DNA of 64,000 nt from an uncultured virus (IMG/VR IMGVR_UViG_3300027805_000007) (Duplodnaviria > Heunggongvirae > Uroviricota > Caudoviricetes), in IMG/VR virus record IMGVR_UViG_3300027805_000007; one strand, written 5' to 3'. Positions 3,135 through 58,253 of this stretch are shown here, one piece after another (positions within the stretch are counted from its first letter, which is position 1; every line of letters starts with the position of its first letter). The position numbers were made by a program, and so were the translations under genes. The notes under the pieces were generated by a model that saw only the letters and a program-made list of their open reading frames with translations, was not told where the DNA came from and did not search any database.

Positions 3135-3920
3135 TTACTTGTACTTAGTGATAACAGGGTATCCAGTAGTTGGGCACATCTCTAAATCTGGTGATATTGG
3201 GCTGGTGTAACTACGGACAAGCAAGCGCTGTACCCAACGATCGGTACCGTCATAGCGGGCTTGAAATGGTTTGCGACCATGAACAGTATTGGAGTTATCA
3301 ATAATAAAAAGATCCCCAGTAGCCAGCGCTACCTCTTGAGTGTGTTTTTCTACAACACGCCCAAATTCTTCTAAAGCATCTTGAGCCGCCGCCGTTGTGC
3401 CATGCATAACAGACTTGTCGTAGCACATGGTGCTACGCCCGTCTTTAACGCCAAGTATGGACGTAGTGACAATGGTGTCAGACTCTCCGTTAGTTCTAAA
3501 ACTCTCATCAACAGATGTTTCAAATAAGGGCATTGATAAAAGAGCAATACAAACATCGTCTAACTCAGGCAAGATGTCATGCAACTGCGCATAAGTTGTA
3601 AAGGCTTGCGGATCACCTCGTAGACACAACAACATAATGTAGTCAGGCTTGTAAGGGTGAAAGGCTGTCTCTGTATGTAGGTCAAGGTTGACTTTAGATG
3701 ACGATGAGATCTGCGAGTACTCGGTCTTTGGGTTAGGCACGATGTTCTGAATCAACCTGCCGTTTTGTTCTTGCTTGTAACCAACTGGAATGCCAAAGTT
3801 CTTTGCGTAATGAAACATAGTGTGACGAGCAACGTGACACGTATTTTCATCAATGTGTGGCGTAATGGGAGTTGCTGGAATAGGACCAATCGGCAGGTCT
3901 TTAAACAAGAAGATGGTCAT
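3135..3920 (-). CDS. TauD/TfdA-family, clavaminate-synthase-like Fe(II)/2OG dioxygenase (AsnO/VioC-like)
   Basis: LHTETAFHPYKPDYIMLLCLR (HxE iron motif) and IDN..TVHGRKPFQARYDGTDRWVQR. Confidence 0.85.
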   Translation of the reverse strand: MTIFLFKDLPIGPIPATPITPHIDENTCHVARHTMFHYAKNFGIPVGYKQEQNGRLIQNIVPNPKTEYSQISSSSKVNLDLHTETAFHPYKPDYIMLLCLRGDPQAFTTYAQLHDILPELDDVCIALLSMPLFETSVDESFRTNGESDTIVTTSILGVKDGRSTMCYDKSVMHGTTAAAQDALEEFGRVVEKHTQEVALATGDLFIIDNSNTVHGRKPFQARYDGTDRWVQRLLVRSYTSPISPDLEMCPTTGYPVITKYK

Positions 3921-16037: not shown

Positions 16038-16389
16038 CGTTAGTCATCCTTTGCTGTTTTGCGTATTTATCTAAATTCGCAAGGAACGCTCTCCATGGTG
16101 CCACTTCTATTGGCAATGGTCGGCGTGTGATCTCCTTAACGAAGTCCAAGATCATCTCACGAATCTGTTCGTTTGTAAAGCCTTTGTCTGTAAGTTTCTT
16201 AAACCCTTTCATCATGGCGGGACCATTTACAGGGGCGGTGATTCTCATCAGGTTCTCGGTTGGCAAACTGTCACGAAAGAAATGAACTAGAGAGCCTCGG
16301 GAATCTTGGCGCATCTGTTTTGGGGCTGGTTCTTTTCTATCGGGGTCTTCGCCTAAACCAGTTCCCCAGTCGTCAAATTGTTTCTTCAT
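15988..16389 (-). CDS. Hypothetical protein, possible C-terminal partner of the replication initiator
   Basis: Located between the HTH initiator and the loader. Confidence 0.7.
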   Translation of the reverse strand: MKKQFDDWGTGLGEDPDRKEPAPKQMRQDSRGSLVHFFRDSLPTENLMRITAPVNGPAMMKGFKKLTDKGFTNEQIREMILDFVKEITRRPLPIEVAPWRAFLANLDKYAKQQRMTNDVEPTTTSIDPRLIGE

Positions 16390-16858
16390 CCACCAACCTC
16401 TGATCCACTTTTGTTAAAATTTCCCTCTTCTTGATTTTCTTACTCTTGATAGATACTCTTGATTGGGTGTCACGGGAGACACTACTAGTGGTGTCTGTGG
16501 TGACACTACCTAGTGTCTCCAGTGTCACCACTAGGGGTGACTCGTGTGACACTAGTGGATTGTTAAAATTGACATAGTAACTATTCGTCAGGTTCTTATT
16601 TGACCTAGTGACACGGTGCTGTTTGACGATCAAACCAATTTCCTCAAGTCGTTTTATTGAGCGCATAACCGTACGGCGATCACAACCCATTTGGTCAGCA
16701 ATGTGCTGGTAGGACGTCGTCAGTTCCTGGGTATCAGGGTGGAGGTACTGAAGGAAGTGGTTCAGTACTGCATGGGATACATAGTCAGTTGCAATGTATG
16801 GCAACACCCATCTTGGGACTGGTAAAAAGGGGCCACTCAGTCGGTTGTTCTTTGCCAT
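16373..16858 (-). CDS. Winged-HTH replication initiator-like protein
   Basis: SYQHIADQMGCDRRTVMRSIKRLEEIGLI..N.Y HTH; internal iteron array; first gene of the replication operon; GAGGAG RBS. Confidence 0.8.
   Translation of the reverse strand: MAKNNRLSGPFLPVPRWVLPYIATDYVSHAVLNHFLQYLHPDTQELTTSYQHIADQMGCDRRTVMRSIKRLEEIGLIVKQHRVTRSNKNLTNSYYVNFNNPLVSHESPLVVTLETLGSVTTDTTSSVSRDTQSRVSIKSKKIKKREILTKVDQRLVDEETI
16467..16552. repeat. Four 16-bp palindromic iterons (GTGTC-N6-GACAC), putative replication origin
   Basis: Units at 16467, 16491, 16513 and 16537; adjacent AT-rich tract with TACTCTTGAT repeats. Confidence 0.75.
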
Positions 16859-16896
16859 TTCTTGTGCTCCTCAGGTTGTCATTTCTCGGGGCGCCC

Positions 16897-16948
16897 ATGT
16901 TACACTCTCGGCGTTGCTTTAACACTTCCTGATCGGGTGTTAAAGTAA
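16897..16948. promoter_or_regulatory. Divergent promoter region with an inverted-repeat operator
   Basis: Minus-strand TAACAT (16897-16902); plus-strand TAAAGT (16941-16946); TTGCTTTAACAC-N11-GTGTTAAAGTAA. Confidence 0.55.
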
Positions 16949-16955
16949 TAAGAGT

Positions 16956-17044
16956 GTTGGGAGGAGAGCGACCTCCTCAGGACGACAGAGCAGGGGCTTT
17001 ACCTCCTTTCTCCCCTGCCCGTGTTAAATGGCTCTCCTCCCAAC
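16956..17044 (+). ncRNA. Candidate structured small RNA displaying anti-Shine-Dalgarno loops
   Basis: Perfect 14-bp closing stem; inner 7-bp stem with loop CUUUACCUCCUUUCU; TANNNT hexamer about 10 nt upstream; no ORF with a standard start. Confidence 0.55.
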
Positions 17045-17059
17045 CGCTAAACTATTCCC

Positions 17060-17224
17060 ATGGCATCTAAAAAAGAAGTATGGGACAAACCCAATCCAAA
17101 GAAGAAGTCAACTAAGTTGACACCTGACCAGAAGTCAGAAGCAAAGGCTCGTGCTAAAGCCGCTGGTCGTCCGTATCCAAACCTTGTTGACAACATGGCT
17201 GTCTCCAAGAAAGGTAAGAAGTAA
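17060..17224 (+). CDS. 54-aa basic protein (MASKKEVWDKPNPKKK...AGRPYPNLVDNM), probably leaderless; absent from the ORF track
   Basis: TAAACT 6 nt before ATG; TAATG coupling to the next gene. Confidence 0.8.
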   Translation: MASKKEVWDKPNPKKKSTKLTPDQKSEAKARAKAAGRPYPNLVDNMAVSKKGKK

Positions 17225-24003: not shown

Positions 24004-25656
24004 TTAATTTAACTTTGTTGAAGACTGTATAGTTTTAACATTGAATGAATCACCGTCTATCCAATTATCATATAACACTTCTGTAAGTGCTTGAGCGTAT
24101 TGTTTTGAAGTTGCTTGACCACCTTGAGTACCAGAAACAACATAACCAATATTGACTTCAATAAGGTATTTAGCAGCCGATGACGTGTCATATTTATTTG
24201 CAATACTTGGGTTTAATTTTGTTATTTCAAAAGTAGTTGGCCTTGCGTTAACTAATGGAATAGCAGAGTCCCAAGTAACTTCTGATTGAGCAGACGTTTC
24301 GTAGATAATTTTACCAATACTACCTGTAAAGTCAGGGTCTTGAGGAACACCTTGACGACCTTTGTACGTTATTCTAATAGTCATAGTGGCATCTGTTTTA
24401 GCAATAAAATCTTTATTAACATCGTAAGTATTAGTAGGGACCATAGATACTTCAAAAAACGTACTGTCACCCTTACTTAAAATGTCTGATATTTTAAGTT
24501 CTTTTCTGTTGCTGTCATTACTAAATGGGTTTATTTTTGATGGTATAGAACTCTTAGAGCGCACAACTCTATTAACAAGGTCATCAGCAAGCGGCTGTAA
24601 CTTTATGGCTTCTTGCTCTACATCACTACTGCCCTGACCTGGTTGAGTGTCTTCTAGCGCAACTTTAAGACTACGTGTAAGAAACGTATCCCTAGTTGCA
24701 AATCCAATGTACATTGCTTCCATTTGAATTTCTACAGTGCATTGTGTTGGCACCATGGCTAGGTTAAATTTGTTAAACGTAACAGTTGAACTGCTTATAA
24801 ACCCTTCAACCATGTACAAAGAAGAAAACACTATTCGTACTGGTTGAGCGATGAGAAACGCAGAGTTACCAATATTCCCAGACAGATACTCGCCTAAGTC
24901 TGATGGCATTACAAGTGGTTGTTGGTCTTGAGCATCTGCTGTTCCTGCGGATGCATTTGTAGGGTTATTAATGTTGTATTCTTTTGTGTAGTCAGTAATC
25001 TTTCCTAACAGTTTGTTTGCTAAATCTTGATTTAATCCCTGACCAATAACTTGGTCAAATACCATAAGGTCTGCTAGAACACCGATATCAGTTACTGACG
25101 ATGGGTTATATTCACCAACAGTAGTGCCAACTTTGCCACCCCCACCGCCAGGTGAAGCCGCATAAACATCTCGTACTTCTCCAGGTATTGTTGTAGGACG
25201 ATTATTAGTAGTAATAACGTTTGAATTATTACGGTAAGTTCCTGACGCTACCTCTGCCTCACGGTTTAATATGAAACTAAAAGCAAAGTTAGATTGTCCT
25301 GGGATTGGATTAACAAACTGACTAGGGTCTTGGTTCATCCAAAACTGAACATCATTACGAGCAGTTACGGAACGTACAAGAACGTCAGGGTTAAATTGAA
25401 AGTTAAAACGTCGTTTAGACAAGTTTTGACTTGCTGCATCTGTCCCATATGCTTCCGCAATCATACGCATATACCCACGCTGTAGTTTGATGTTTGTTCC
25501 TGTAACAGCATTCTTATAATTACTGGCAGGCCATAAAAAACCAGGGTTGTCTTTATCTCCAATAGCCTTTTCGCTACCTGGTTTGATGCCACCTTCATAT
25601 TTAGTAAAGTTATAAAACTGGTCATTTTGATAACGTGCTGGGAATTTATTAGCCAT
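24004..25656 (-). CDS. Tail tube initiator/baseplate protein
   Basis: FNFQFNP motif; immediately downstream of the tape measure. Confidence 0.65.
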   Translation of the reverse strand: MANKFPARYQNDQFYNFTKYEGGIKPGSEKAIGDKDNPGFLWPASNYKNAVTGTNIKLQRGYMRMIAEAYGTDAASQNLSKRRFNFQFNPDVLVRSVTARNDVQFWMNQDPSQFVNPIPGQSNFAFSFILNREAEVASGTYRNNSNVITTNNRPTTIPGEVRDVYAASPGGGGGKVGTTVGEYNPSSVTDIGVLADLMVFDQVIGQGLNQDLANKLLGKITDYTKEYNINNPTNASAGTADAQDQQPLVMPSDLGEYLSGNIGNSAFLIAQPVRIVFSSLYMVEGFISSSTVTFNKFNLAMVPTQCTVEIQMEAMYIGFATRDTFLTRSLKVALEDTQPGQGSSDVEQEAIKLQPLADDLVNRVVRSKSSIPSKINPFSNDSNRKELKISDILSKGDSTFFEVSMVPTNTYDVNKDFIAKTDATMTIRITYKGRQGVPQDPDFTGSIGKIIYETSAQSEVTWDSAIPLVNARPTTFEITKLNPSIANKYDTSSAAKYLIEVNIGYVVSGTQGGQATSKQYAQALTEVLYDNWIDGDSFNVKTIQSSTKLN

Positions 25657-28364
25657 TACATACCCCTTAGAGCAGTTGTTTTAACTTTACGAGAAATGAT
25701 ATCTGCAATCTCTTGAGCGGCACGGTTTGCGTCTGCCACATTGTTACCTGCTGATTGAATGTAAATGTTTGGAGCAATTGTAATACCACCTCCATTGCCC
25801 TCTACGATCACAGTGTTACCACCGCCACCACGAGAAGGTGCGCTAATAGGGTCACCTGAAGAACCCTTTGTAGTACTAATAGGGGTTCCAGGAGGAAGAT
25901 CAATTGATTTAAGTTTTCCTGCACCAGGCCATGTTATGTTGCCTCGTACAATAGATTCAAAGCCATCGTGCGCCCAAAGTTGTTCTAATAGAACTTTGGC
26001 TACTTTCTTTTGATCTTCAGGAGTTGCTAGTGCAGGATTCTTTGCATACTTTAAACCACCACCTCGGTTCCAGTTATATTGATTCATGGCAAATCCGCCC
26101 ATAAGCGTGCCGTCACGATTCTTTACAGTTCTAGTCCAATCCTTTTGCTCGTGTAGGTGTAAGGCTTCTAGATCAGCGTCGGTAAATGATTGTGGAACAA
26201 AATAACCCCAACCTTGGTAGTTTGGAGTTGTTCGGTACATGAATCCCGCAGGGATGGTTCCTGGTTTAAACCCTGGTGCAGAACCTTTACCTTTATTTTC
26301 CCCAGTTTTTGGCGCTCCTGTACGTAATGTAACTACACGACCACCAATGCCACCTCCTCCAATTTTCAGCACATTACTAGCACGAGAATAAGTAATGGAA
26401 TCAGCAATACTCATTTGAGAATTAACAGTGATACCACCACTAGCGCCATATGAATCTTCTGGAGTTCCTTCAAAGGTAGCGTCAAATGGGTAAGCAATAG
26501 TTCCCGCAGGACCACGTCCCCACGGCGCTCCATCTTTTTCATATTGCCTTCTGCTATTTGCAAGTTCTGCTGGTTGTACGTGCCAAGGTTCAGCAATGCT
26601 TGAGATAGTCTTCAAACCAAAGCGTGAAGCGTTTCGCATGAACCATTCTTCGTCAGCCTTTGTTGGATAGTTAAGGTCAACTGCCAAACCAAGTTCGTGC
26701 ATTGACATTCCTGGGGGAGCCGCATCTGGAACACCAGCATGCTTCTTCCAGTATGAACCGTCCCAGTACACACCTGTCTTTTCAGAGGTCTTTGAATAGC
26801 GGGACAAGAACATTGTTCGCTGATCCGCTGAGGAACGGAAACCAGTTCCAATTGTGATGCTTGGGCGCTCTGACATCATTTGACGCAAACGATCACCAAA
26901 CGTTTTATTTAAACTACTTGGTACATTTACCGATCCTCTGCCACCCCTAGCACCATTAGTTGCTTTAGATCCTGTTCCATCTTCTAAAGCATCTCCACCA
27001 ATTAAACCTAACGCATCTTTAATTGGACCAAAAGCCGCACCAAAACCTTTACCAAGAGCATTGGTTAACGGGTTATTTCGGGTACTAATACGAGCACCAA
27101 TAATGGCGGCAGTTAACTCCTCAACCTTACGTGTGAGGTCTTCCATCTTCTGGGTATTGCGCTCTAAAGATGCGTAGTTGTCTTTTTGTTTGTTATAGAA
27201 CGACTCATCACGTTGTGTTCTACGAACATCTGTTACTTCTCGTTCAGTAGCAAAGTTCTTATCAATACCCATGACACCCAACTGCTTACGGTCAGCAGGG
27301 TTGTACATCCCCTTCTTTCCGCCAGTCTTTTTCTGGTATTGAATGTTTTGCATTGCGTATTGAATAACAACATCTTGCATTTCTGGAGGTACACCCATAG
27401 CGCTCAAACGAGCACGGGTCATAGATCCAGGTTGTAGCGCACCACGAACTACGTTTTCATTAGTCAAACCAGCACCACGAACAATTGCCTGAATGACTTC
27501 TACTGGAGAGCGTTGCTTACCACCAGGTCCATACAGACCCGTACCCAACGTCATTGTTAAACGATTGTTTACTTCTGGAGAAGCCAACGTAGAAAGCATG
27601 TTGCTTACATCGCCAGTGCTTAAACCAAAACCAGTCATGGTGCGGATTGCTTCCACACCTGGAGCCATTATTTGAGCGTTAAGACCAGTAGTTGCTTGAA
27701 GACTAAGCATCTGGTTAATACCACCAGGACCAAGTCGGTAATTGTTAATTGGCTTTCTAAATTGGTTGTAATTCTGTTGTTGAGATATTCCATACATTTG
27801 TTGGAACATCACGCTCTGACGGTCTGCTTCTAAAGATGGACCATAACCACGATCAATGCGGGCATCTAACTTTTGCAGTTGTTCTTGGACTTTGTCCAAA
27901 TTCTTAGTGATTGATTTAGCCGCTAATGACGCCGCCATTGCATAAGGGTTCCCACTAGCCATAGCGGCGCCACTAAGACCACCACCGCCTCCACCTCCTC
28001 CAAGGTTTCCGAGTCCGCCACCAAGCCCACCACCGCTACCACCACCTGTACCTGCTACTAGGCGTGCAGTTGTAGCAGTAGCATTAGAAGTTGCGGCGGC
28101 TGTAGTAGTTGATGCTGAAGATGGCGCACCGCCACCTGAACCAGTGATTGCCCCAGTGGTACGGCTTGCTTCGGTGTTTAGTTGCCTAATTTCATTACGT
28201 AACGTTCTTACTCTTCTAGTAAGATCATCGTACGTTGTCATCCATAAACGGGCAATAGACCTATCAAGGCGCATGCCAACGTTAGCGTTTACATTGGAAA
28301 CATTGTTTCCAGTGCGTGGACTACCGCCAAAAGCACCATCACCTACGCCACGTTCTTCAGGCAT
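25656..28364 (-). CDS. Tape measure protein with M15 peptidase and Rpf-like transglycosylase domains
   Basis: Long A/G-rich helical region; GFRS..AAPPGMSMHELGLAVD..EPWH; HE..GGFAM..W..GG..YA..P..ATPEDQ..VA. Confidence 0.85.
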   Translation of the reverse strand: MPEERGVGDGAFGGSPRTGNNVSNVNANVGMRLDRSIARLWMTTYDDLTRRVRTLRNEIRQLNTEASRTTGAITGSGGGAPSSASTTTAAATSNATATTARLVAGTGGGSGGGLGGGLGNLGGGGGGGGLSGAAMASGNPYAMAASLAAKSITKNLDKVQEQLQKLDARIDRGYGPSLEADRQSVMFQQMYGISQQQNYNQFRKPINNYRLGPGGINQMLSLQATTGLNAQIMAPGVEAIRTMTGFGLSTGDVSNMLSTLASPEVNNRLTMTLGTGLYGPGGKQRSPVEVIQAIVRGAGLTNENVVRGALQPGSMTRARLSAMGVPPEMQDVVIQYAMQNIQYQKKTGGKKGMYNPADRKQLGVMGIDKNFATEREVTDVRRTQRDESFYNKQKDNYASLERNTQKMEDLTRKVEELTAAIIGARISTRNNPLTNALGKGFGAAFGPIKDALGLIGGDALEDGTGSKATNGARGGRGSVNVPSSLNKTFGDRLRQMMSERPSITIGTGFRSSADQRTMFLSRYSKTSEKTGVYWDGSYWKKHAGVPDAAPPGMSMHELGLAVDLNYPTKADEEWFMRNASRFGLKTISSIAEPWHVQPAELANSRRQYEKDGAPWGRGPAGTIAYPFDATFEGTPEDSYGASGGITVNSQMSIADSITYSRASNVLKIGGGGIGGRVVTLRTGAPKTGENKGKGSAPGFKPGTIPAGFMYRTTPNYQGWGYFVPQSFTDADLEALHLHEQKDWTRTVKNRDGTLMGGFAMNQYNWNRGGGLKYAKNPALATPEDQKKVAKVLLEQLWAHDGFESIVRGNITWPGAGKLKSIDLPPGTPISTTKGSSGDPISAPSRGGGGNTVIVEGNGGGITIAPNIYIQSAGNNVADANRAAQEIADIISRKVKTTALRGM

Positions 28365-41224: not shown

Positions 41225-41857
41225 TTATACCGTTTTACGGGTTCTAATGCTTTCTTGACCTTGTACGTAGGTTTGGTATGGGGGACCCGTGTAGGGGTCA
41301 AACCGAGCCGCAATATTGAGAGCCTTGAGGGCGCTGGTCTTAGCCTGCTGGGCTGTCCATTTCTTTTTATTCATCATGACTTGTAAAGCACCTAGGGCAT
41401 AGTGGGCACCAGATCCAATAGCGTAGATACCACTGGCTTCAGATGACCACGCATAGTCTCCATCAACCATATAGATAACACCATTGACCACAACAAGAAT
41501 GTTGGATCCCTGCTCGGCAATATGCTCTTTGTTTTCGTTGAGGTCAGGTATTGAGTAACCCTGAGCGTCAAAACATTCACGTAACGCAGGAATGAACTTG
41601 GCAGTAAAGAACTGATCTAGTTTTTTACCTTTTAAGTTTGGTGGAACTGCTGGGGGCTGAAAGACATGATGCAAGATATTGATTGCACGCACATCCCCAG
41701 CCGCACCTAACAAGTACTTTCCGTTAGTGGCAACTTTGCTGGAGCCTTCACGAAGTGTTCCAGTTTGAGCAAGACCATCGGAGAACACGGTGGAGATACG
41801 TGAGTCAACACATACCACAGCAAAGCCGTCACCTTGAATTCCAACAATCGTTGTCAT
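41225..41857 (-). CDS. HslV/proteasome-beta-like Ntn threonine protease
   Basis: MTTIVG N-terminal Thr, DSR, K, GAAG, AIGSGA.YALGAL, D.YTG. Confidence 0.85.
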   Translation of the reverse strand: MTTIVGIQGDGFAVVCVDSRISTVFSDGLAQTGTLREGSSKVATNGKYLLGAAGDVRAINILHHVFQPPAVPPNLKGKKLDQFFTAKFIPALRECFDAQGYSIPDLNENKEHIAEQGSNILVVVNGVIYMVDGDYAWSSEASGIYAIGSGAHYALGALQVMMNKKKWTAQQAKTSALKALNIAARFDPYTGPPYQTYVQGQESIRTRKTV

Positions 41858-49059: not shown

Positions 49060-49629
49060 TTATATGCCAGTAATATTTATATTCAATACACAGCGTTTTG
49101 TAGAAATTAAAGGCAATTGGGCAGAATGGGGGACATCCGAATTAAAAACAACTAAACAGTTTTCTTTTGGTGTTTGCCTATGGATGATGTTTTTGTTTTC
49201 GTAGAATAATGTATCACCGTCAGAGTCGTTAAAATAATAAAGACCAGTAAAACCATTATTCATATCTGTATGTATTTGCGGTTCAACCTGTTTGCCTACA
49301 TTCAAAGTTAAATTAAGTTTTAATCTAATTAGTTGATAACTGGTTAAACCAAGTGCGTCAACCATTCCATAAACAATTGGCTGAAACAAAGATAAATAGT
49401 TTGATTGACTATCTATTGAATAGGCAATATGAGTAAAACCATGTAACTCTATTGGATACTTTTTGTTTGGTTCATTTTCTAAATGACCTGAATCATGAAA
49501 ATACCAATCAAAGTTATTGCCTAGAACAATGTCTTTAACAACTTTGAAATGGGTATCACCGAGTAAATTGTTTATGAATAGTGGGTTATTAGTTACAACA
49601 CCATCAGTAATTTGTGCAAAATGTGCCAT
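49060..49629 (-). CDS. 2OG-Fe(II) oxygenase
   Basis: HTD..LYYFNDSDGDTLF..VVF..HSA..RCVLNIN; AT-rich. Confidence 0.85.
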   Translation of the reverse strand: MAHFAQITDGVVTNNPLFINNLLGDTHFKVVKDIVLGNNFDWYFHDSGHLENEPNKKYPIELHGFTHIAYSIDSQSNYLSLFQPIVYGMVDALGLTSYQLIRLKLNLTLNVGKQVEPQIHTDMNNGFTGLYYFNDSDGDTLFYENKNIIHRQTPKENCLVVFNSDVPHSAQLPLISTKRCVLNINITGI

Positions 49630-50558
49630 TAAAAAGTAATACTCCCCGAACCAGTCCAAGTATAAACACGATATCCAGAACGAGATGTTGTATTGATTGT
49701 TGGAGAACCAGTAGTTGCAACAGCAGCATCAAAATCTAATGGATAGGCAACAATGACCACACCACTTCCGCCCGATTGACCATTTGTTGTCAAATGCAAA
49801 TATCGGGAGCCACCGCCACCGCCACCGCCCGTGTTTGACGAACCTGCTGTTGGTGTCCATGCTCCTGAACCACCGCCACCTGCGCCTCCAGCACCGCCAC
49901 TACCAAACTCTAAGAAGTTTCCTGCTCCGCCTCCGCCGCCTCGGAATGTAGCGGTTCCGTCTATGGATGACGAACTACCATTACCACCAGCACCACCGTT
50001 TTCACCTTGGTTGTTTTGACCAACTGCTCCAGCACCGCCACCGCCACCGCCAGCCCGTGAACGCCCATTGATTACACCCGCTCCAGAACCACCATTGTTA
50101 CCTTGTGACGGACTTACTGATGGTGTGTTACCTGCACCACCGTTTGAACCATTACCATGACCACCTCCACCTGAACCACCAGCAATAGTTCCACCGCCAC
50201 CGCCACCAGCAGATGAAATAGATGAAAATACAGACGCAGTTCCACTTCCACCGTTTCCAAGTGAGCCTGAAGAACCACCGCCGCCACCGCCAACAGTGAC
50301 AGTTAGTGCAACACCAGCAGAAACAGCAAAAGATGCTGAAGTGCGATAACCGCCCGCACCACCTCCACCACCACCGTCTGTGCCGCCGCCTCCACCGCCA
50401 CCGCCAACAACAAGGTATTCAACGCTAGATGGAGGATTTGGACCACCACCAGACCAGTAAGCAGCAACCTGAGCCGTGTTACCACGGCTACTACGTGGAG
50501 CCAATGACCCACCACTAATGGCTTTACCACCAGATGTGCTTTTTAAAATAGAAGGCAC
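49629..50558 (-). CDS. Glycine-rich adhesin/tail-fibre tip protein
   Basis: VEYLVVGGGGGG...[10 protein letters not shown]...YTWTGSGSITF. Confidence 0.8.
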   Translation of the reverse strand: MPSILKSTSGGKAISGGSLAPRSSRGNTAQVAAYWSGGGPNPPSSVEYLVVGGGGGGGGTDGGGGGGAGGYRTSASFAVSAGVALTVTVGGGGGGSSGSLGNGGSGTASVFSSISSAGGGGGGTIAGGSGGGGHGNGSNGGAGNTPSVSPSQGNNGGSGAGVINGRSRAGGGGGGAGAVGQNNQGENGGAGGNGSSSSIDGTATFRGGGGGAGNFLEFGSGGAGGAGGGGSGAWTPTAGSSNTGGGGGGGSRYLHLTTNGQSGGSGVVIVAYPLDFDAAVATTGSPTINTTSRSGYRVYTWTGSGSITF

Positions 50559-50567
50559 AAAGACCCC

Positions 50568-50939
50568 TTACGCTGTGATGCGGTTAACGTACCCGTGAAT
50601 CACAATTTCGTTTGCTGTTCCAGCAAAAGCACGAACGACCTTAGCGGTTGCGTTACCCTGCAACAAAAGACCTGGAACAATTAGGTAAAGACCGTTCTCA
50701 GCCTTAACCGTGTATTCAATGTTTCCGTTTGGTTCAGTTGCTTCGCCCCACTCAATCGTCAACTTAATGTCCGATGTGTGAGTATTAACTGCGTACAACC
50801 AGATCTCATCAATCGTGGTAGCAGTTGACGACGCTGTGTGTATTGCTGTACCAGCAGTTGCGGTTGCGGCTACAAGGATGCCCAAACCAGTTCCCGTTGT
50901 ACCTGCTGGTTGTAGCGCTAACTTAGTAAATGTTGCCAT
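50568..50939 (-). CDS. Fibre adaptor-like beta protein
   Basis: 123 aa; between a short stalk gene and a Gly-rich gene. Confidence 0.65.
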   Translation of the reverse strand: MATFTKLALQPAGTTGTGLGILVAATATAGTAIHTASSTATTIDEIWLYAVNTHTSDIKLTIEWGEATEPNGNIEYTVKAENGLYLIVPGLLLQGNATAKVVRAFAGTANEIVIHGYVNRITA

Positions 50940-50947
50940 TATTGCTC

Positions 50948-51205
50948 CTAACTAAAAACTTGAGAACTGATGACCGCTTGGTCAGTATCATAGACCGCAT
51001 TGGTACCGTTAGTACCGTTGGTTCCGTTAGCACCAGCCGCCCCAGCAATACCGCCATAAGCAAGACTAGTCCATGCGGTTAGACCATCACCGATCTTAAA
51101 CTGGTCGGTATCTGTTTCAATACCCATTTCACCTTCAGCAAGTGTTGGGTTGGCACTAGTCCATGCGGATGCAGTACCACGGCGAAATTGAATCTGTACA
51201 GCCAT
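50948..51205 (-). CDS. Short fibre protein with an Mtd-N/hyaluronidase-N-like domain and GxN repeats
   Basis: IQFRRGTASAWTSANPTLAEGEMGIETDT..KIGDG..W. Confidence 0.8.
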   Translation of the reverse strand: MAVQIQFRRGTASAWTSANPTLAEGEMGIETDTDQFKIGDGLTAWTSLAYGGIAGAAGANGTNGTNGTNAVYDTDQAVISSQVFS

Positions 51206-51227
51206 AGGGTACTAGTTTACCTTAGAG

Positions 51228-52439
51228 TTACCAAGTGATTGAACCAGTTGACAAGAAGACGTACGTTTTATAACCGTTTGCGTTAGTCATTGTTACACCA
51301 CTTCCTGTAGTTAAAGCAGTTGGGTATGTTGATGAGGTTCTAATCACAACTGCTCCTGAACCACCTGCTCCACCGTTACCAGTAGAGTGGCCTCCACCAC
51401 CACCACCTCCACCAGTGTTTGCGCCACCAGCGCCACCAGGATAGTTAGTATCACTGTTTGTACCACCAGTACCAGCAGCACCTACGTTACGTCCCCCAGT
51501 ACCACCTGCTCCAGGACTTGTAGTTGCTTTTGCACCGCCACCGCCACCGCCTAAACCACCGTTACCACCAGGCATTGCTCCTGTATAACCAGAGCCACCA
51601 CCACCGCCACCGTAGTAAAAACCATCAATAGGGTTAATAACACCAGCGCCACCATTTCCTGGAGTAGACCCTGACACGACTGTGGCTCCGTTTGCTCCTG
51701 CTCCAGCGCCTCCACCACCAGCATAGTTAAGACCATCGGCACCAATACCATTACCACCAGTTCTTCCACCGTAGGCAGTTCCTGTGGCACCTGCTGGGAT
51801 TGTGTCTATCGTTCCAGTTTGTCCTGCTGTCCTTACACCGTCTGAAGAACCACCTGCACCGTTAGCACCACCAGTAGCATTAGCATTATTAAAATAAGAT
51901 GATGCACTTCTGTTCCAACCTGCTCCACCACCTTTACAAGTAGCACCTGCAAAAGAAGAAGAAGCCCCAATACTTCCACCAGTATCAGTACCTTGACCAC
52001 TGCTTATTGTTCCAGCACCACCAGCACCAACTGTAACTGTGTAAGTGTTTCCGTAAACTAGTGAACTAGAACTTACGTACATAGCACCACCGCCACCAGC
52101 GCCACCAGTTAGTGACGTTCCAGCACCACCGCCACCAGCAGCAATGAAGTACTCAGTAGTAATAGAATTATTAAAAATAACGCCATTTGACCAGTTTGTA
52201 CCCGTGTATATTCTCAGTAGGTTAGTATCTGTTTCGTAAATACTTTGCCCTGTATTAGGGGTTGCAGGGCGAGTAGTACTAGTGCAAACAGTAATACCAC
52301 CAGCACCAGCCGCAATCTTTGCAGACGTTACCGCACCATCGGCTAGTTTTGCCGTGGTAATTGAACCGTCAGTTACAGCACCAAGGTTGTACTTGGTTTT
52401 GTTTTCTGCGAATTGAAGTTCAAAATCAAGTGGGTCCAT
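51228..52439 (-). CDS. Glycine-rich adhesin/tail-fibre protein
   Basis: TTAKLADGAVTSAKI; VCTSTTRP..GQSIYETDT; polyglycine domain. Confidence 0.8.
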   Translation of the reverse strand: MDPLDFELQFAENKTKYNLGAVTDGSITTAKLADGAVTSAKIAAGAGGITVCTSTTRPATPNTGQSIYETDTNLLRIYTGTNWSNGVIFNNSITTEYFIAAGGGGAGTSLTGGAGGGGAMYVSSSSLVYGNTYTVTVGAGGAGTISSGQGTDTGGSIGASSSFAGATCKGGGAGWNRSASSYFNNANATGGANGAGGSSDGVRTAGQTGTIDTIPAGATGTAYGGRTGGNGIGADGLNYAGGGGAGAGANGATVVSGSTPGNGGAGVINPIDGFYYGGGGGGSGYTGAMPGGNGGLGGGGGGAKATTSPGAGGTGGRNVGAAGTGGTNSDTNYPGGAGGANTGGGGGGGGHSTGNGGAGGSGAVVIRTSSTYPTALTTGSGVTMTNANGYKTYVFLSTGSITW

Positions 52440-52804
52440 TACGCAGGAAGTGTTACTTCATCCCATTCTTGGTTTGCTTCATCCCAGGTGTAGAAACCTT
52501 CTGTTGGGCGAGCAACTGGTGCTTCCCATTCAGTGGTTTCTTCGTTAAGTGACCATGATGGGTAAGGCTTTGGGGCGATGTAAGCATCCAAATCTGATCG
52601 GTAGGTGTAACCAATACCTGCGTAACGAGCACGCATGTTGCCGTTGTATGAGGTCTGCTTCCATGTTCCACCAAGAAGGTTGCGACAGAATTCAGCGCCT
52701 ACGGCTTCTGATTCGTTGCCCTCTGAGTCCTTACAATCATCGTTAGATACTACGATTACTCGCAATACGATGTTGTCTTCACCAAGTTCTGCAAAATGTG
52801 CCAT
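52439..52804 (-). CDS. Fibre-associated chaperone-like protein (MAHFAE family)
   Basis: MAHFAE..WKQTSYN..YAGIGY..PKPYPSW..WEAP..WDE. Confidence 0.75.
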   Translation of the reverse strand: MAHFAELGEDNIVLRVIVVSNDDCKDSEGNESEAVGAEFCRNLLGGTWKQTSYNGNMRARYAGIGYTYRSDLDAYIAPKPYPSWSLNEETTEWEAPVARPTEGFYTWDEANQEWDEVTLPA

Positions 52805-52815
52805 TTAAGTTTCTC

Positions 52816-53745
52816 CTAGAAAGTAATACTGCCAGACGCAGTAAACGTGTATACATGATAGCCTGAACGAGACACCGAACTGTATGTTGGTGAACCTGTT
52901 GTAGCAGTTGCGGTTGAAAATGTTGATGGGTAAGCAATAATCACTACTCCTGAACCGCCAGCAGCACCAGCAGGTTGAGATGCACCTCCACCACCACCAG
53001 TATTAGCAGTTCCAGCAGAGCCAGAAACACCACCTGCTCCACCTCCACCAGAACCTCCACCAGAACCAAACCATTGAACCAATGGTTCAATTCCGTTTCC
53101 TCCTCCACCACCAGCACGAGTTACAGAAGTTCCAGTAATTGATGATGCAACACCTGCACCGCCACTACCTGCTCCACCACTTGATGAATTACCTCCTACA
53201 GCACCTGCGCCACCGCCACCTGCGCCAATCCATCTGCCTTGTCCAATTGCGTAGTATTGACCGCTACCACCGTTATTTCCTTGACCAGCCGTTCCAGTAC
53301 CAGCAACAGAAGCACCGCCACCACCGCCACCGCCACCTGAACCACCCTGACCAGTATTATTGTTTCCGTAAGCACCGCCTCCTCCACCAGTACTTGTTAT
53401 GGTGCTGAAAGCAGAGTTTCCTCCAGCACCACCATTACCTTTTGAAGTAACAGAACCTCCACCACCAACAGTAACGGTTATTGGGACACCAGCAGAAACA
53501 GCAAAACCAGACGCAGTTCTATATCCACCCGCTCCACCACCGCCACCTGCGGCTCCACCATTACCTTCGGCTCCTGCTCCTCCACCACCACCAGCAATAA
53601 CAAGATATTCAACAGTGGGTGTAGTTAAACTAGGCCAATTAATAGCCCCACGTTCACGTTGAGCATCACGGATAGCCCAAATACCAGATGCAGAGGAGGG
53701 ATTTACTGTTCCTTTTGGACCAATAATGCTTCCATTAGAGCGCAT
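52816..53745 (-). CDS. Glycine-rich adhesin/tail-fibre tip protein
   Basis: ASGIW; VEYLVIAGGGGG; YTFTASGSITF; paralog of 49629 gene. Confidence 0.8.
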   Translation of the reverse strand: MRSNGSIIGPKGTVNPSSASGIWAIRDAQRERGAINWPSLTTPTVEYLVIAGGGGGAGAEGNGGAAGGGGGAGGYRTASGFAVSAGVPITVTVGGGGSVTSKGNGGAGGNSAFSTITSTGGGGGAYGNNNTGQGGSGGGGGGGGASVAGTGTAGQGNNGGSGQYYAIGQGRWIGAGGGGAGAVGGNSSSGGAGSGGAGVASSITGTSVTRAGGGGGNGIEPLVQWFGSGGGSGGGGAGGVSGSAGTANTGGGGGASQPAGAAGGSGVVIIAYPSTFSTATATTGSPTYSSVSRSGYHVYTFTASGSITF

Positions 53746-54098
53746 TAACTAATTTCCTCGTAACTACATACTGCTTCAAGGTCAGAGTTAGCACTTGCGG
53801 TAAGGCGCAGTTCATCGCCTTCTTCTAAATAAATAGATTTACTAATAACATCAAGTGTTGCATCTGCTGGGACTGAGACAGTGTGGGCAATCTCATAGGA
53901 AACAGAAGAACGATGAAGGGCAACAGAAATTTCAGCCGCCGCCGCACCATCAACGTTGGCTATATACAAAGCATTGACTTTAAACACTTTGCCCGAAGCG
54001 GCAGAATTAGTCACAATAGCGGTAGCAGAGGTAGTCACCTGTTGTACTGCGGTCTTACCAATGATGGTTGTTACGTTAACAATATTAGGTGCCGCCAT
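53745..54098 (-). CDS. Fibre adaptor-like beta protein
   Basis: MAAPNIVNV..ANVDG..VPADATL..YLEEGD..SYEEIS. Confidence 0.7.
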   Translation of the reverse strand: MAAPNIVNVTTIIGKTAVQQVTTSATAIVTNSAASGKVFKVNALYIANVDGAAAAEISVALHRSSVSYEIAHTVSVPADATLDVISKSIYLEEGDELRLTASANSDLEAVCSYEEIS

Positions 54099-54101
54099 AA
54101 A

Positions 54102-54332
54102 CTATCCTCCAAAAACTATAGCCATAGCAATGGCTTTACCTGTAGATGCTTTACTGTTTACTTCAGTAGGGGTTGCAGTGGCATAAGCCAAAGAAGCCCA
54201 TGCCGTAGAACCATTTCCAACTTTCATTTTATTTGTGTCAGATTCAACGGCTAATTCACCAGCCGCAAGAATAGGGTTAGTTGCAGTCCACTCAGAAGCA
54301 GTACCTCTACGAATTTGAATTTGGTAATACAT
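54102..54332 (-). CDS. Short Mtd-N-like fibre protein ending KAIAMAIVFGG
   Basis: IQIRRGTASEWTATNPILAAGE..DT..KVGNG. Confidence 0.8.
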   Translation of the reverse strand: MYYQIQIRRGTASEWTATNPILAAGELAVESDTNKMKVGNGSTAWASLAYATATPTEVNSKASTGKAIAMAIVFGG

Positions 54333-54544
54333 CAGGTAACCGTTCCTGCGTCAACAGGCCCCATAACAAAGAATTGAAGTGTATTAGGTCTACCACCATC
54401 TAATGCAGTAGTACTTGGCTCAATAGTAATCTCTGTATTAGAGGTAACCAAAAGCCAAGCAGAACCATCATACCTCCATGTCTTACCACCAGAATTAAAT
54501 ATCTGATTAGTTGTAGGAGAATTGGGAAAATCTATAGCAGGCAT
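54332..54544 (-). CDS. Short fibre-segment protein
   Basis: [20 protein letters not shown], shared with the N-terminus of 54544 gene. Confidence 0.7.
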
Positions 54545-55680
54545 TATGCGATCACCAAACTTCCTGATGCTGTAAATGTACGAACTGTGTATGAACCAGA
54601 AGTTGTGGCGGTACCACCAGTAATGGTAAGACCAACACCGTCAGAGGTTAAATAACGAACTATAACAACGCCAGAACCACCAGCACCACCAGAAGGTGTT
54701 GCACCACCAAAACCTCCAGCGCCTCCGCCTCCGCCTCCTCTATTTGATGTTCCAGCAGTTCCAGCAGTTGCACCACTGCCACCAGCACCACCTCCACCTG
54801 AGCCACCAGCACCACCTGTTGAACTTCCAGTGCCGCCACCGCCACCAGCGTAAGTAACTGATGAACCAGTTATAGATGAAGATACACCGACACCGCCAGC
54901 GCCGCCAATAGAGTTGCCAGTTCTTGTTTCACCTACTGCTCCAGCACCGCCACCGCCAGCATAACTACCGCTTATGCTATTGCCACCAGCAAAACCTTGC
55001 GATGAAGTTCCTGCGCCACCCGTAGTGGTTATGTTGTTTGCACCACCACCTGAACCACCGATATTAGGTGTATTTAATCCCGCACCACGACCACCACCAG
55101 TTGAAGTTATAGAACCAAAAACACTATTTGAACCAACCGCATCAGAAGCACCACCACCACCAACGGTTACACCATACGTTCCAGATGTCAAAACCAACGG
55201 CGACTCTATGGTTCCACCGCCACCAGATGCTTCTCCAGCGACTGATGAGCGGTAACCACCAGCACCACCGCCACCACCGCTGTAAGTAGAACCATCTGTT
55301 TTTCCACCGCCACCGCCACCAGCAATAATGAGATATTCAACAGTTAAACCAGCAATGTGCTTGTACCCATTTGACCAAGCAGAACCTAACCATACCTTTA
55401 AAAGATTCGTGTCAGTTTCAAAAATCTGTTGTCCAGTAAACGGAGACCCTGGTTTAGTTGAAGACGTGCAAATAGTTACGCCCGACAGAGTGGAAGCAAG
55501 TTTTGCCTGGGTTACAGCGTTTTCAGCAATCTTGGCTGTAGTAACGCCCAAGTCTTGTATCTGGGCCGTAACAATCTTACCGCCAGTCATTTCCCATACA
55601 GAACCAGTCCATGTATAGGTACGGTTGTTTACTGTGTATTGATCGTTAACAGCAGGGGAAGCAGGGAAAGAGAATGCCAT
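54544..55680 (-). CDS. Glycine-rich adhesin/tail-fibre protein
   Basis: [28 protein letters not shown]; polyglycine; ends GSLVIA. Confidence 0.8.
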
Positions 55681-55687
55681 TGACTAC

Positions 55688-56344
55688 CTACTTGGCATAC
55701 CCGTAAACAGAGATAGTGCCGCCAGTGATGGTTCCAGTTGAACAAGTCAATGTAAATGCCGTATATTGAGTTGCGTTATCCAAGAATCCAGCATAATCAA
55801 ATCTGTACCATGTTGTTGTAGAACCAGTTGCCTGCGCCCTAACTATTGTTCGCTTTGCAAGGTTGGGGGACTCTAGTTCTATGCGTGAAGATATGGCGTT
55901 TGAGGTCGCATAACCAACATCAAAAAATGTTGCCGTGTTTGTGTTTGTTGCTACAACACCAGCAGAACTATATTGTGCGTAGAAACCTGCATACGAGTAA
56001 CCAGTAGCAGTTGAACCCAGTGTTAGACGCAAGTTGATATTGGTTGAACCAACACCACCAGAAACAAGAATTAAATAGTTGTCGTAGGTGCTGCTAAATA
56101 CGTCTGCCACTTCAACGGTGGATACTGCGCTACCAATCGTTTGTGTTTTGATTAAGTCAAAGCCTACAGGGTTTGCCCGACTTGTTGACAGGAACACCCA
56201 ACCCGTACCGTTCCATACCAAAGTCTTATCCGTGTCAGTCTCATAGATAACTTGACCGTCATATGGTGAAGCAGGGCGAGTCGTAGACGTACAAACACCA
56301 GGTTGCATAATTGAAGATGAGCCGATAACAGAACTAAGAGGCAT
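55688..56344 (-). CDS. Fibre tip protein with a beta-sandwich C-domain
   Basis: VCTSTTRPASPYDGQVIYETDT; FSSTYDNY; GTISVYGY. Confidence 0.75.
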   Translation of the reverse strand: MPLSSVIGSSSIMQPGVCTSTTRPASPYDGQVIYETDTDKTLVWNGTGWVFLSTSRANPVGFDLIKTQTIGSAVSTVEVADVFSSTYDNYLILVSGGVGSTNINLRLTLGSTATGYSYAGFYAQYSSAGVVATNTNTATFFDVGYATSNAISSRIELESPNLAKRTIVRAQATGSTTTWYRFDYAGFLDNATQYTAFTLTCSTGTITGGTISVYGYAK

Positions 56345-57279
56345 TATGCAATTACCAAACTTCCTGAACTAGTAAACGTATGAACAGTATAAGAACCAGA
56401 TGTTGTTTTAGTCCCACCACTGATATTAAAAATTACTGCTTCTGCTGTCAAATAACGAACAATAACCACACCAGACGCACCAGCGTATGTAGTTGCACCC
56501 AATCCAGCACCATCACCACCGTTACCTGTGTTAGCAGTAACAGCAACCATTCCAGTCCAACTATCACCACCACCATCTCCACCTGTTGCGTAAGTAATAG
56601 ATGAACCAGTAATAGAGTTCACCAAACCAACACCACCAGCAGCAAAACTAGATGCACCGTTCGTTGATGCGGCTCCAGCGCCACCTGCACCACCACCGCC
56701 ACCTCCTGTAGCCGCACCACCGTATGCGGCTAAACCTGCACCACCAGCAAAACCTTGATTAGATACTCCTGTTCCTCCAGTGGTTGCGGAACCATACCCA
56801 GAACCACCACCACCAGAACCACCATTAGCACCCGAACCACCGCTATAGTTACCTGCACCACCTCCACCAGTAGAAGTGATTGTGTGGAATACAGAGTTAG
56901 TTCCAGAACCAGCAGTACCACCTGAAGCACCACCAGCACCTCCCGAACCAATAGTTACGGTGTACGTACCTGCACCCAAAACAAGTTGTGATTCTGCGGC
57001 AGTGTTTCCACCAGATGTACCCGTAGTCGTGCGGTAACCTCCAGCGCCTCCACCGCCTCCAACATCAAAACCACCTCCACCGCCTCCTGCTACTACAAGG
57101 TAGTCAAGAGCAACTAATGTGCTGTGTTTTATACCATTTGACCACGAACTACCTAACCATACCTTTTGCAAAAACGTATCAGTTTCAAAAATCATCATGC
57201 CAATGTATGGGTTGGCAGGACGATTAGTAGAAGTACATACTCCTGGGCGCATGCCTTTATCTGATGCTGAAATACTCAT
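56344..57279 (-). CDS. Glycine-rich adhesin/tail-fibre protein
   Basis: VCTSTNRP..IFETDT; polyglycine; ends GSLVIA. Confidence 0.8.
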   Translation of the reverse strand: MSISASDKGMRPGVCTSTNRPANPYIGMMIFETDTFLQKVWLGSSWSNGIKHSTLVALDYLVVAGGGGGGFDVGGGGGAGGYRTTTGTSGGNTAAESQLVLGAGTYTVTIGSGGAGGASGGTAGSGTNSVFHTITSTGGGGAGNYSGGSGANGGSGGGGSGYGSATTGGTGVSNQGFAGGAGLAAYGGAATGGGGGGAGGAGAASTNGASSFAAGGVGLVNSITGSSITYATGGDGGGDSWTGMVAVTANTGNGGDGAGLGATTYAGASGVVIVRYLTAEAVIFNISGGTKTTSGSYTVHTFTSSGSLVIA

Positions 57280-58253
57280 GCGATCACCAAACTACCAGAG
57301 GCTGTAAACGTGTGAATCGTGTATGTACCTGCTGTGGTTTTTGTTCCACCAGTAATTGTAAAACCAGTTGCATCGTTTGTTGTGTAACGACAAATTACAA
57401 CGCCAGAACCACCAGCCTGACCTGTTGTGCTTGTTGCACCGCCACCACCACCTGTGTTCGCTGTTCCAGCCGTACCGCTTGAACCACCATTACCGCCACC
57501 ACCCAAACCACCAGTACCAGGGGTTCTACCAGTTGAGTAGGCACCACCTCCACCACCACCTGCTCGGTATATTGCCGTTCCGTTTATTGATGATTGAACA
57601 CCAATACCACCATCACCAGATTTACCTGCGGCACAGTTGGCACCTACTGCTCCAGCACCGCCACCACCACCAGAGGTGTATTGCGTGTTGCCCGAACCAG
57701 TACCTCCAGCAAAACCTTGTCCTGCTGTTCCAGCCGCACCAGCAATGTAGTCACCACCACCACCAGAACCACCAATGTTCGGTGCTGTGTTACCAATACC
57801 ACCACCGCCACCACCTGTAGAAGTAATTGTATGAAAAACTGTATTTACTCCGTTAGTGCCTTTAGCGTCTGTCCCACCAGCACCACCAGCACCAATAGTC
57901 ACGGCATACGTTCCTATTGACAAACCTAAAACAGATTCAATAGTTCCACCGCCACCACTTATTTCTCCAATAACCGAACTTCTATAACCGCCAGCGCCAC
58001 CACCACCACCAGATGCACCTAAACTAGTGTTAGATGAAGCAGCGCCACCACCGCCAGCAATAACCAAGTACTCAATAGCAAGAGTTATTGAATGCTTAAA
58101 ACCGCTAGACCAACCAGTACCAAGCCAAGACCTAACAAGGTTGGTGTCGGTTTCAAAAATGGTTTGCCCTACAAAAGGTGAAGCAGGGCGTGAAGTACTA
58201 GTGCAAACACCTGTTCTAATAGAACCAAGACCATAAGCAGAACTAAGAGCCAT
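57276..58253 (-). CDS. Glycine-rich adhesin/tail-fibre protein
   Basis: VCTSTSRPASPFVGQTIFETDT; polyglycine; ends GSLVIA. Confidence 0.8.
   Translation of the reverse strand: MALSSAYGLGSIRTGVCTSTSRPASPFVGQTIFETDTNLVRSWLGTGWSSGFKHSITLAIEYLVIAGGGGAASSNTSLGASGGGGGAGGYRSSVIGEISGGGGTIESVLGLSIGTYAVTIGAGGAGGTDAKGTNGVNTVFHTITSTGGGGGGIGNTAPNIGGSGGGGDYIAGAAGTAGQGFAGGTGSGNTQYTSGGGGGAGAVGANCAAGKSGDGGIGVQSSINGTAIYRAGGGGGGAYSTGRTPGTGGLGGGGNGGSSGTAGTANTGGGGGATSTTGQAGGSGVVICRYTTNDATGFTITGGTKTTAGTYTIHTFTASGSLVIA

Follow-up and report, generated by a model that had tools for sequence, protein, structure and literature searches.

The DNA considered here is a stretch of 64,000 nucleotides (the window), which forms part of the uncultured genome of a phage of about 95-97 kb. 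Its genes lie nearly all on the minus strand and specify a contractile tail (sheath, tube and baseplate), a portal and a capsid, as well as replication and recombination proteins comprising RecA, a family-A DNA polymerase, a primase, a DnaB-like helicase and a DnaC-like loader. Between the gene for a replication-initiator-like protein (rep), which is the first of the replication module, and a small island of plus-strand genes lies a divergent intergenic region of 201 nt (16859-17059), and it is this region that harbours the hairpin under study (Table 1). The island is a variable cassette of two to five very small lysine-rich proteins from several families, which follows the RNA in all relatives, with a gene order and content that differ among close relatives. 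The families phrog_34011 and phrog_7595 are common to roseophages, HMO-2011 and cyanophages, relatives of the first cassette protein are encoded in at least 562 viral stretches, and the 89-aa protein matches hypothetical viral clusters only in the protein atlas.

Table 1. Features in and around the divergent intergenic region (window coordinates).
Feature	Position	Strand	Description
Replication-initiator-like HTH protein (rep)	16373-16858	-	phrog_270/391, PF13730; first gene of the replication module
rep RBS	16867-16875	-	mRNA CCUGAGGAG, 8 nt before AUG 16858; complementary to the junction motif
rep -10-like hexamer	16897-16902	-	TAACAT; AGTGTA(A/G/T)(C/G)(A/C)T kept even in distant relatives lacking the RNA
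Palindrome	16914-16948		TTGCTTTAACAC / GTGTTAAAGTAA, 12 bp; arms 16914-16925 / 16937-16948; overlaps -35 and -10 of P1
P1 promoter-like site	16919-16946	+	-35 TTAACA, 16-nt spacer, TG-extended -10 TAAAGT at 16941-16946 (sigma-70-type scan)
Structured RNA element	16953-17048	+	about 96 nt; covarying three-way junction
Outer stem	16953-16969 with 17031-17048	+	17 bp, one bulged C
Junction motif (anti-RBS 1)	16970-16981	+	GACCUCCUCAGG; exact complement of the RBS hairpin CCUGAGGAGG(UC)
Inner stem	16985-16996 with 17012-17024	+	three-way junction arm below the 15-nt loop
Apical loop (anti-RBS 2, 16S-tail look-alike)	16997-17011	+	CUUUACCUCCUUUCU, 15 nt; contains ACCUCCUUUCU
P2, second -10-like hexamer	17048-17053	+	TAAACT, 6 nt before ATG 17060, no SD; TAnAnT invariant
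Lysine-rich small protein, 54 aa	17060-17224	+	phrog_34011
Lysine-rich small protein, 89 aa	17224-17493	+	phrog_7595

The host is very probably an actinobacterium, because two WhiB genes are found in each of five related records (G001-G003, G005 and G006, of which four are 100% complete and G001 78%), and because the best matches of the window's DNA polymerase are Streptomyces phages, at about 35% identity. Among 14 control genomes, the WhiB family had a match in Corynebacterium only. The tape-measure-like protein encoded at 25656-28364 on the minus strand combines a VanY peptidase domain with a transglycosylase domain of the Rpf type, which fits a Gram-positive or actinobacterial host. A tyrosine integrase was found in none of five related genomes (four 100% and one 99% complete).

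The first-pass annotation of the locus had described a perfect 14-bp inverted repeat (16956-16969 with 17031-17044) around an inner stem GCAGGGG/CCCCTGC (16990-16996 with 17012-17018), a 15-nt loop containing ACCUCCUUUCU and a second ACCTCCT at 16971. Each of these elements is present, and the repeat extends by three further pairs and a bulged C to 16953 and 17048. The first-pass annotation had missed an invariant 12-nt junction, to which the second CCUCC motif belongs. On the plus strand the element folds at -45.8 kcal/mol (z = -3.7), a stability equalled by one of 200 shuffles. In 15 distinct sequences, the 31 base pairs of the structure include ten compensatory and no broken ones, such that all 465 of 465 cells are standard on the plus strand; since the family is a single shallow clade (rep at least 83% identical), the independent substitution events behind these counts are few. 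None of 500 column shuffles did as well in pairing, in covariation score or in how many pairs are compensatory, and sliding the 3' partners by one to three columns lowered pairing to 41-56%. The hairpin structure is real and lies far beyond chance.

Which strand is under selection? Read as the minus strand, 433 of the 465 cells are standard, and 32 G.U cells at eight pairs turn into A.C. Because all 32 wobble cells are G.U on the plus strand only, the selected molecule is the plus strand, most simply an RNA. A covariance model built from the related phages (R1), a check that the first-pass annotation had proposed, also supports a conserved plus-strand structured RNA, scoring 115 bits on the plus strand of the window versus 21 bits on the minus strand. 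Compensatory pairs, strand-specific G.U pairs and the lack of a conserved reading frame are the marks of structured non-coding RNAs in general, and the element displays all three. The earlier idea of a minus-strand decoy for the 30S subunit founders on the same 32 cells, which become A.C mismatches there. A micro-ORF with a CTG start behind the minus-strand SD, previously listed as a competing explanation, fares no better, because the triplet at the fixed SD spacing is CCT in ten sequences, CCC in two and CTG in three and no frame on either strand is open in 15 of 15; whether CTG or GTG is taken as the start, each frame has stops in some relative and is shifted by indels of 1-2 nt. We likewise discarded a degenerate minus-strand gene start, given the wobble-pair asymmetry and the lack of a conserved start, and a plus-strand ORF of 38 aa (16954-17070), which is likewise not open in all 15 sequences.

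Conservation is concentrated in particular segments of the element. The loop sequence CCUCCUUUC is kept in 15 of 15 distinct sequences, which answers the question of loop conservation raised at the outset, and is preceded by A in five of them and by C in ten. Junction columns A23-G33 are invariant to the same extent (15/15; ACCUCCUCAGG represents 11 invariant columns), and the stems vary. Together with the rep RBS block GCTCCTCAGGTTG, which is invariant in 14 of 14 sequences, junction and loop CCUCCUUUC make up the main invariant blocks of the intergenic alignment, alongside the rep -10 region with its two shorter invariant runs, CATG and TACACT. In the predicted ensemble, the apical loop is unpaired with a probability of 0.98; the junction has a mean of 0.53 and an opening cost of 3.0 kcal/mol. 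Following the first-pass annotation, we take ACCUCCUUUCU to be the last 11 nt of actinobacterial 16S rRNA, an assignment made at the level of the group. It is consistent with a mycobacterial study, according to which 16S rRNA is cleaved between C and ACCU at 11 nt from its 3' end and has CCUCCU as its anti-SD (PMC12274833). Two further repeats, a third copy of GTGTTAAA at 17021 and an 8/9 match between the loop and the rep leader, are not kept in relatives and were set aside.

Relatives were gathered by their initiator protein, so that the RNA played no part in the choice, and 27 viral loci resulted. The element occurs in 21 of the 27, with initiators 83-94% identical, and is absent from five more distant loci (initiator 36-55%); one locus with too little upstream DNA (L022) was left out of the presence count. 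A motif scan of viral DNA returned 24 stretches, namely 21 known contigs, one new member (L050) and two chance matches (L030 and L033), and R1 detects one copy per genome in the window and in G001, G002, G003 and G005. A pattern scan of metagenomes gave at least 118 stretches with six true R1 members, all from the same clade and partly from the same contigs. The corresponding scan of species genomes gave at least 120 stretches, and none of those listed was an R1 member (best score 16.2 bits, in an archaeal MAG), and no bacterial or prophage copy was among the at least 120 matches listed. Because both pattern scans required both motifs, they would miss diverged members. One relative, L003 (IMGVR_UViG_3300008261_002026), has lost the second -10 hexamer together with the 3' strand of the outer stem in a 26-nt deletion, and its phrog_7595 gene is also frameshifted; this locus is either a defective variant or an assembly error.

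The initial impression that the element belongs to no described family was borne out by Rfam 15, which at gathering thresholds has no match in the whole window. At E <= 10, the segment 16880-17120 gave four noise matches of 12-15 bits, compared with gathering scores of 35-84. The 6C sRNA, alpha-r14 and the c4 antisense RNA all have Rfam models, and none of them matched even at this relaxed threshold. Second by score among the four noise matches was the atoC RNA motif (RF01733; 14.1 bits and E = 6, a chance-level match given its gathering score of 50), whose consensus comprises a GAGG.../...CCUC hairpin followed by a hairpin with the loop CuuuCCCUCCUa. That alignment uses an alternative pairing rather than the covarying structure, and the atoC motif belongs to deltaproteobacterial leaders. 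In our view the RNA family is new, and the principle behind its action is most likely a known one.

How might the RNA be made? All promoter assignments are inferences from sequence. The TANNNT hexamer that had been noted just upstream is present as the -10 of P1, and the predicted start of this promoter, at about 16953, coincides with the first paired base of the clamp stem. The sigma-70-type scan is weak on its own, because shuffles also yield one site; in every clade a TANNNT lies 6-7 nt before the first paired A, even where the surrounding sequence has diverged. Plus-strand transcription of the hairpin RNA would start at P1. The arms of the palindrome that overlaps P1 change together in relatives, and it looks like an operator shared by two divergent promoters, perhaps for the neighbouring HTH protein. 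On the other strand, the rep -10 would give a 5' UTR of about 31 nt, from which the hairpin would be excluded. Further along the plus strand, the arrangement of P2 and the ATG at 17060 looks like that of a leaderless mRNA: all relatives with a first gene starting at this position keep the two 6 nt apart, and the TAnAnT-ATG layout recurs before phrog_34011-type genes in other phages. A scan of the plus strand found no U-tract terminator after the stem, where the next bases are AAACUAUUCCCAUGG. Four sequencing runs were examined for transcripts. A freshwater metatranscriptome contig covers 16714-17000 at about 94% identity, in data that give neither strand nor transcript start or end and may include DNA carry-over, and a contig from a run that is probably DNA (X2) covers 16953-17137; X3 and X4 contained no contig over the site. 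A search for runs listed two RNA libraries with a 0.04 share of sequence words, and the contigs found are relatives at 85-95% identity.

What could the exposed motifs recognise? The 9-mer CTCCTCAGG occurs twice in the 64-kb window, compared with 0.33 expected copies, and four of 100 shuffles have two copies anywhere. The two copies are located in the junction (16973-16981) and in the rep RBS (16867-16875), 106 nt apart. Because both lie on the plus strand, a plus-strand RNA is complementary to the rep mRNA. Five related genomes contain 5-11 copies each, and a backwards control has none. The complementarity is restricted to RBSs: all inspected copies outside the RNA are RBSs in a small-gene cluster, which lies on the strand of the RNA beyond the left end of the window. 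All 18 sites in two such clusters, L292 (G001:C1:66500-75020) and L293 (G002:C1:26000-36000), have the mRNA sequence CCUGAGGAGG, and in each an ATG follows GGAGG at a distance of 4-10 nt. The RBS class CCUGAGGAGG(UC) is thus found at the divergent rep gene, about 100 nt from the RNA, and at about nine small genes in related genomes, one of whose start regions reads CCUGAGGAGGUC...AUG. Complementarity to the junction spans 10 nt in 18 of 18 sites, 11 nt in 12 and 12 nt in seven; for rep it spans 9 nt. The RBS is itself a small hairpin, (x)ACCU-GAGG-AGGU(y), with flanks that covary (9/9 and 8/9 paired in L292), and since its loop is GAGG, a loop-loop start with the CCUC of the junction is conceivable.

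RNAcofold of the RNA with start regions is uninformative, because intermolecular pairs inside loops cannot be placed, and pairing was estimated from duplex and opening energies instead. The median duplex energy with the junction is -26.2 kcal/mol for these RBSs; 69 other start regions in the window have a median of -11.2. The rep site reaches -17.5 kcal/mol, or a net -11.2 after opening costs, and net energies across these sites range from -4.6 to -13.0. A 16S-tail oligonucleotide on the same sites gives -11.5 to -13.6 kcal/mol, and -7.8 on rep. The RNA thus has an unpaired, conserved seed that is complementary to the translation-initiation regions of rep and of 18 of 18 small genes. The full complement of the loop, GAAAGGAGG, is absent as a target from the five related genomes. 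A complete related genome in which R1 finds no RNA (G006) still has 15 CCTGAGGAG sites, which implies that the RBS class does not depend on the RNA. Neither the junction nor the RBS varies, so that RNA and target show no co-variation, and the match between them could in principle be a relic of duplication. In one locus of the clade without the RNA (L023), the translation-initiation region of rep (2895-2919 versus 2969-2995) is directly repeated 74 nt upstream, before a different hairpin; the match is not kept in a close relative (L024) and was not counted as support.

The small-gene clusters L292 and L293 also contain repeated structured leaders before their CCUGAGGAGG RBSs. One type reads TCCCCAG..GGCGTG-NNNN-TTCAAT-NNNN-ACTGGGGAC, with a 7-bp stem around a hairpin that has a covarying 4-bp stem and a T-loop-like TTCAAT, and is reminiscent of a tRNA acceptor/T-arm minihelix. 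In a second type, a long palindrome comes after a hairpin with a GCAA tetraloop. No match to these leaders was obtained with ARAGORN or Rfam, tRNA scans found no tRNA gene in the window or in the small-gene cluster, and the leaders may represent processing or stability signals.

We tentatively favour a scenario, to which we would give slightly less than even confidence, whereby the plus-strand RNA acts in trans, occludes shared RBSs and thereby represses rep, its proposed target next door, together with a class of putative early genes. The molecule, either a transcript of about 96 nt or the leading portion of a longer one, would be made from its own -10-type promoter and begin at the first base of the 17-bp clamp stem, which might protect the 5' end and keep the junction GACCUCCUCAGG and the loop CUUU(A/C)CCUCCUUUC single-stranded. 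The junction would then serve as the specific seed, pairing over 9-12 nt with the CCUGAGGAGG(UC) RBS, and the loop as a second, generic SD contact of 7-8 bp. Such pairing would occlude the SD and block translation initiation of rep and of about nine small genes, whose designation as early is an assumption of ours. Because the RNA gene replicates with the genome, RNA dose would rise in infection, and the mechanism might act as a timer by which the initiator and the early class are shut off. Against this proposal, complementarity to rep spans just 9 nt and the junction is only about half accessible. It also leaves the likeness of the loop to the 16S tail beyond CCUCC unexplained, because the UUUC extension has no phage target. 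The first-pass annotation had suggested that the plus-strand RNA occludes SD-led mRNAs to the benefit of leaderless phage transcripts. The occlusion of SDs is retained in our reading and the general bias towards leaderless messages is not; repression of specific phage genes is indicated instead, because the junction is the exact complement of the RBS of rep and the small genes.

Alternatively, the RNA might be an abundant mimic of the 16S tail that titrates strong SDs at large and so favours mRNAs that are leaderless or have a weak SD. We consider this a weaker rival to targeted repression and an unlikely one. It would account for an invariant loop, 98% unpaired, whose likeness to the 16S tail (CCUCCUUUC) goes further than the CCUCC core, and the adjacent small gene looks leaderless. 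The inferred host group, actinobacteria, has many leaderless mRNAs (PMC12274833). However, most genes of the window are SD-led, and many of them, those for replication and structural proteins included, carry GGAG-type SDs and would be hit as well; it would also take a great deal of one RNA to titrate the mRNAs of a cell stoichiometrically. Moreover, the base before CCUCC is C rather than the A of the 16S tail in ten of 15 sequences, and the invariant CAGG extension of the junction would have no explanation.

Could the hairpin instead act in cis, as the 5' leader of the basic-protein cassette? With transcripts from the upstream promoter running on into the cassette, it might be a stabilising clamp, a binding site through which a lysine-rich protein regulates its own synthesis, or a block to translation of the AUG, which would then be internal. 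This too we judge improbable. The element always heads the plus-strand cassette, whatever the first gene, no terminator follows it, and an AUG without an SD lies 11 nt past the stem; but the conserved -10 hexamer between stem and ATG, at leaderless spacing, points to a separate promoter for the cassette. Among the viral stretches, at least 562, that encode relatives of the first cassette protein, 80 were searched with R1, and the RNA was present in two, both from this clade. The match to the RBS class would also go unexplained.

That the RNA is a true 16S-tail mimic acting on the translation apparatus, be it as a soak for SDs or as a decoy for a factor that recognises the tail, appears to us distinctly unlikely. 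As a soak, it could make host translation collapse while leaderless and weak-SD messages of the phage continue. Neither version is known as a viral strategy, and a 16S mimic would be a new route to manipulating ribosome choice. The decoy version, in which the loop distracts a host toxin or a defence RNase that removes the anti-SD, is highly improbable. It could draw on the up to 11 nt of 16S tail copied in the loop and on two precedents: mycobacterial MazF-mt11 removes the anti-SD (PMC12274833), and cleavage of the anti-SD region is reported for a RelE1 toxin (PMC12620021). Yet CACCU, the MazF-mt11 site as given in PMC12274833, occurs in neither motif: the loop reads UACCU or CCCCU and the junction GACCU. 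No evidence points to such a toxin in the presumed host, and the decoy does not explain the CAGG extension. Very doubtful, finally, is a single-stranded DNA hairpin serving as a priming or loading signal of a replication origin: the site adjoins the initiator, loader, helicase and primase module and G.T pairs are tolerated in DNA hairpins too, but in all clades a promoter-like start coincides exactly with the first base of the paired stem, neither iterons nor an AT-rich tract are seen, and an origin would not predict RBS-complementary loops.

Targeted repression of the phage's own RBSs has parallels in several known systems. Plasmid copy-control antisense RNAs such as CopA/CopT are encoded next to rep, inhibit its translation in a dose-dependent manner and start pairing by loop-loop contact. 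Like them, the element is a small structured RNA beside a rep gene; unlike them, it does not overlap its proposed target, and pairing is limited to a shared RBS motif of 9-12 nt, whereas CopA and CopT overlap and are fully complementary. The c4 antisense RNA of phages P1 and P7 is a structured RNA whose loops block an RBS of the phage's own mRNA, as outlined in a review (PMC12197685). Both RNAs are phage-encoded and structured, with RBS-complementary loops, the pairing being a prediction in our case. However, c4 serves temperate phages as an immunity factor and has a single target operon, whereas about ten dispersed RBSs are concerned here and five of five related genomes lack a tyrosine integrase; there is no relation to c4 in sequence or in Rfam. 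The NfeR1/alpha-r14 ('cuckoo') sRNAs of alpha-proteobacteria carry redundant anti-SD motifs, CCUCCUCCC, in unpaired regions and silence mRNAs by occluding RBSs, and they share with our element several unpaired anti-SD motifs and freely varying stems (PMC10746234). Their identical motifs are displayed by three separate hairpins and encoded in bacterial chromosomes, whereas here two different motifs are presented by one junctioned structure of a phage.

A functional analogy in the presumed host phylum is offered by the 6C sRNA of actinobacteria (B11 in M. tuberculosis and M. smegmatis), whose C-rich loops repress G-rich RBSs, including that of dnaB, independently of a chaperone, through loop-loop or loop-single-strand contacts (PMC6486639). 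The resemblance would extend to unpaired C-rich or pyrimidine loops facing a G-rich RBS, to a replication gene as repressed target and to the presumed host phylum. In contrast to 6C, which is chromosomal and has another sequence and fold, our element is phage-encoded, forms a three-way junction clamped by 17 bp and has one motif tailored to the RBS class of the phage. We found no literature on a phage RNA that targets a shared RBS of the phage's own early genes, which does not prove that none exists. To our knowledge, actinobacteria lack Hfq and sRNA action in them is an open field; we also know of little about regulatory RNAs of actinobacterial phages, or of lytic phages generally. The proposal has the merit of an explicit target set, about ten phage genes that include the replication initiator and share a hairpin-embedded RBS. 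If true, an RNA would be doing here what classical phages achieve with proteins, the translational repressors by which they switch off their early genes, possibly with gene dosage as the timer. For translational control in actinobacteria, the element would then be a small natural building block in which a clamp stem displays two seeds.

Several other features of the window deserve mention. Five paralogues of 309-378 aa, each with a Gly_rich_2 domain (PF21722) and with small ORFs between them, are encoded on the minus strand at 49629-58253 and may constitute a diversified set of fibre or receptor-binding proteins. A 210-aa protein (41225-41857, minus strand) matches the proteasome subunit family PF00227 in its C-terminal part only (E = 3e-8); its gene adjoins a metallophosphoesterase gene and, as transcription runs, comes shortly after that of the portal. 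Two unexpected phage genes, the pair 3135-3920 and 62674-63963, also lie on the minus strand: one encodes a TauD/TfdA-family dioxygenase-like protein (E = 7e-15), the other a protein of 429 aa with a weak match to the GatB/YqeY domain.
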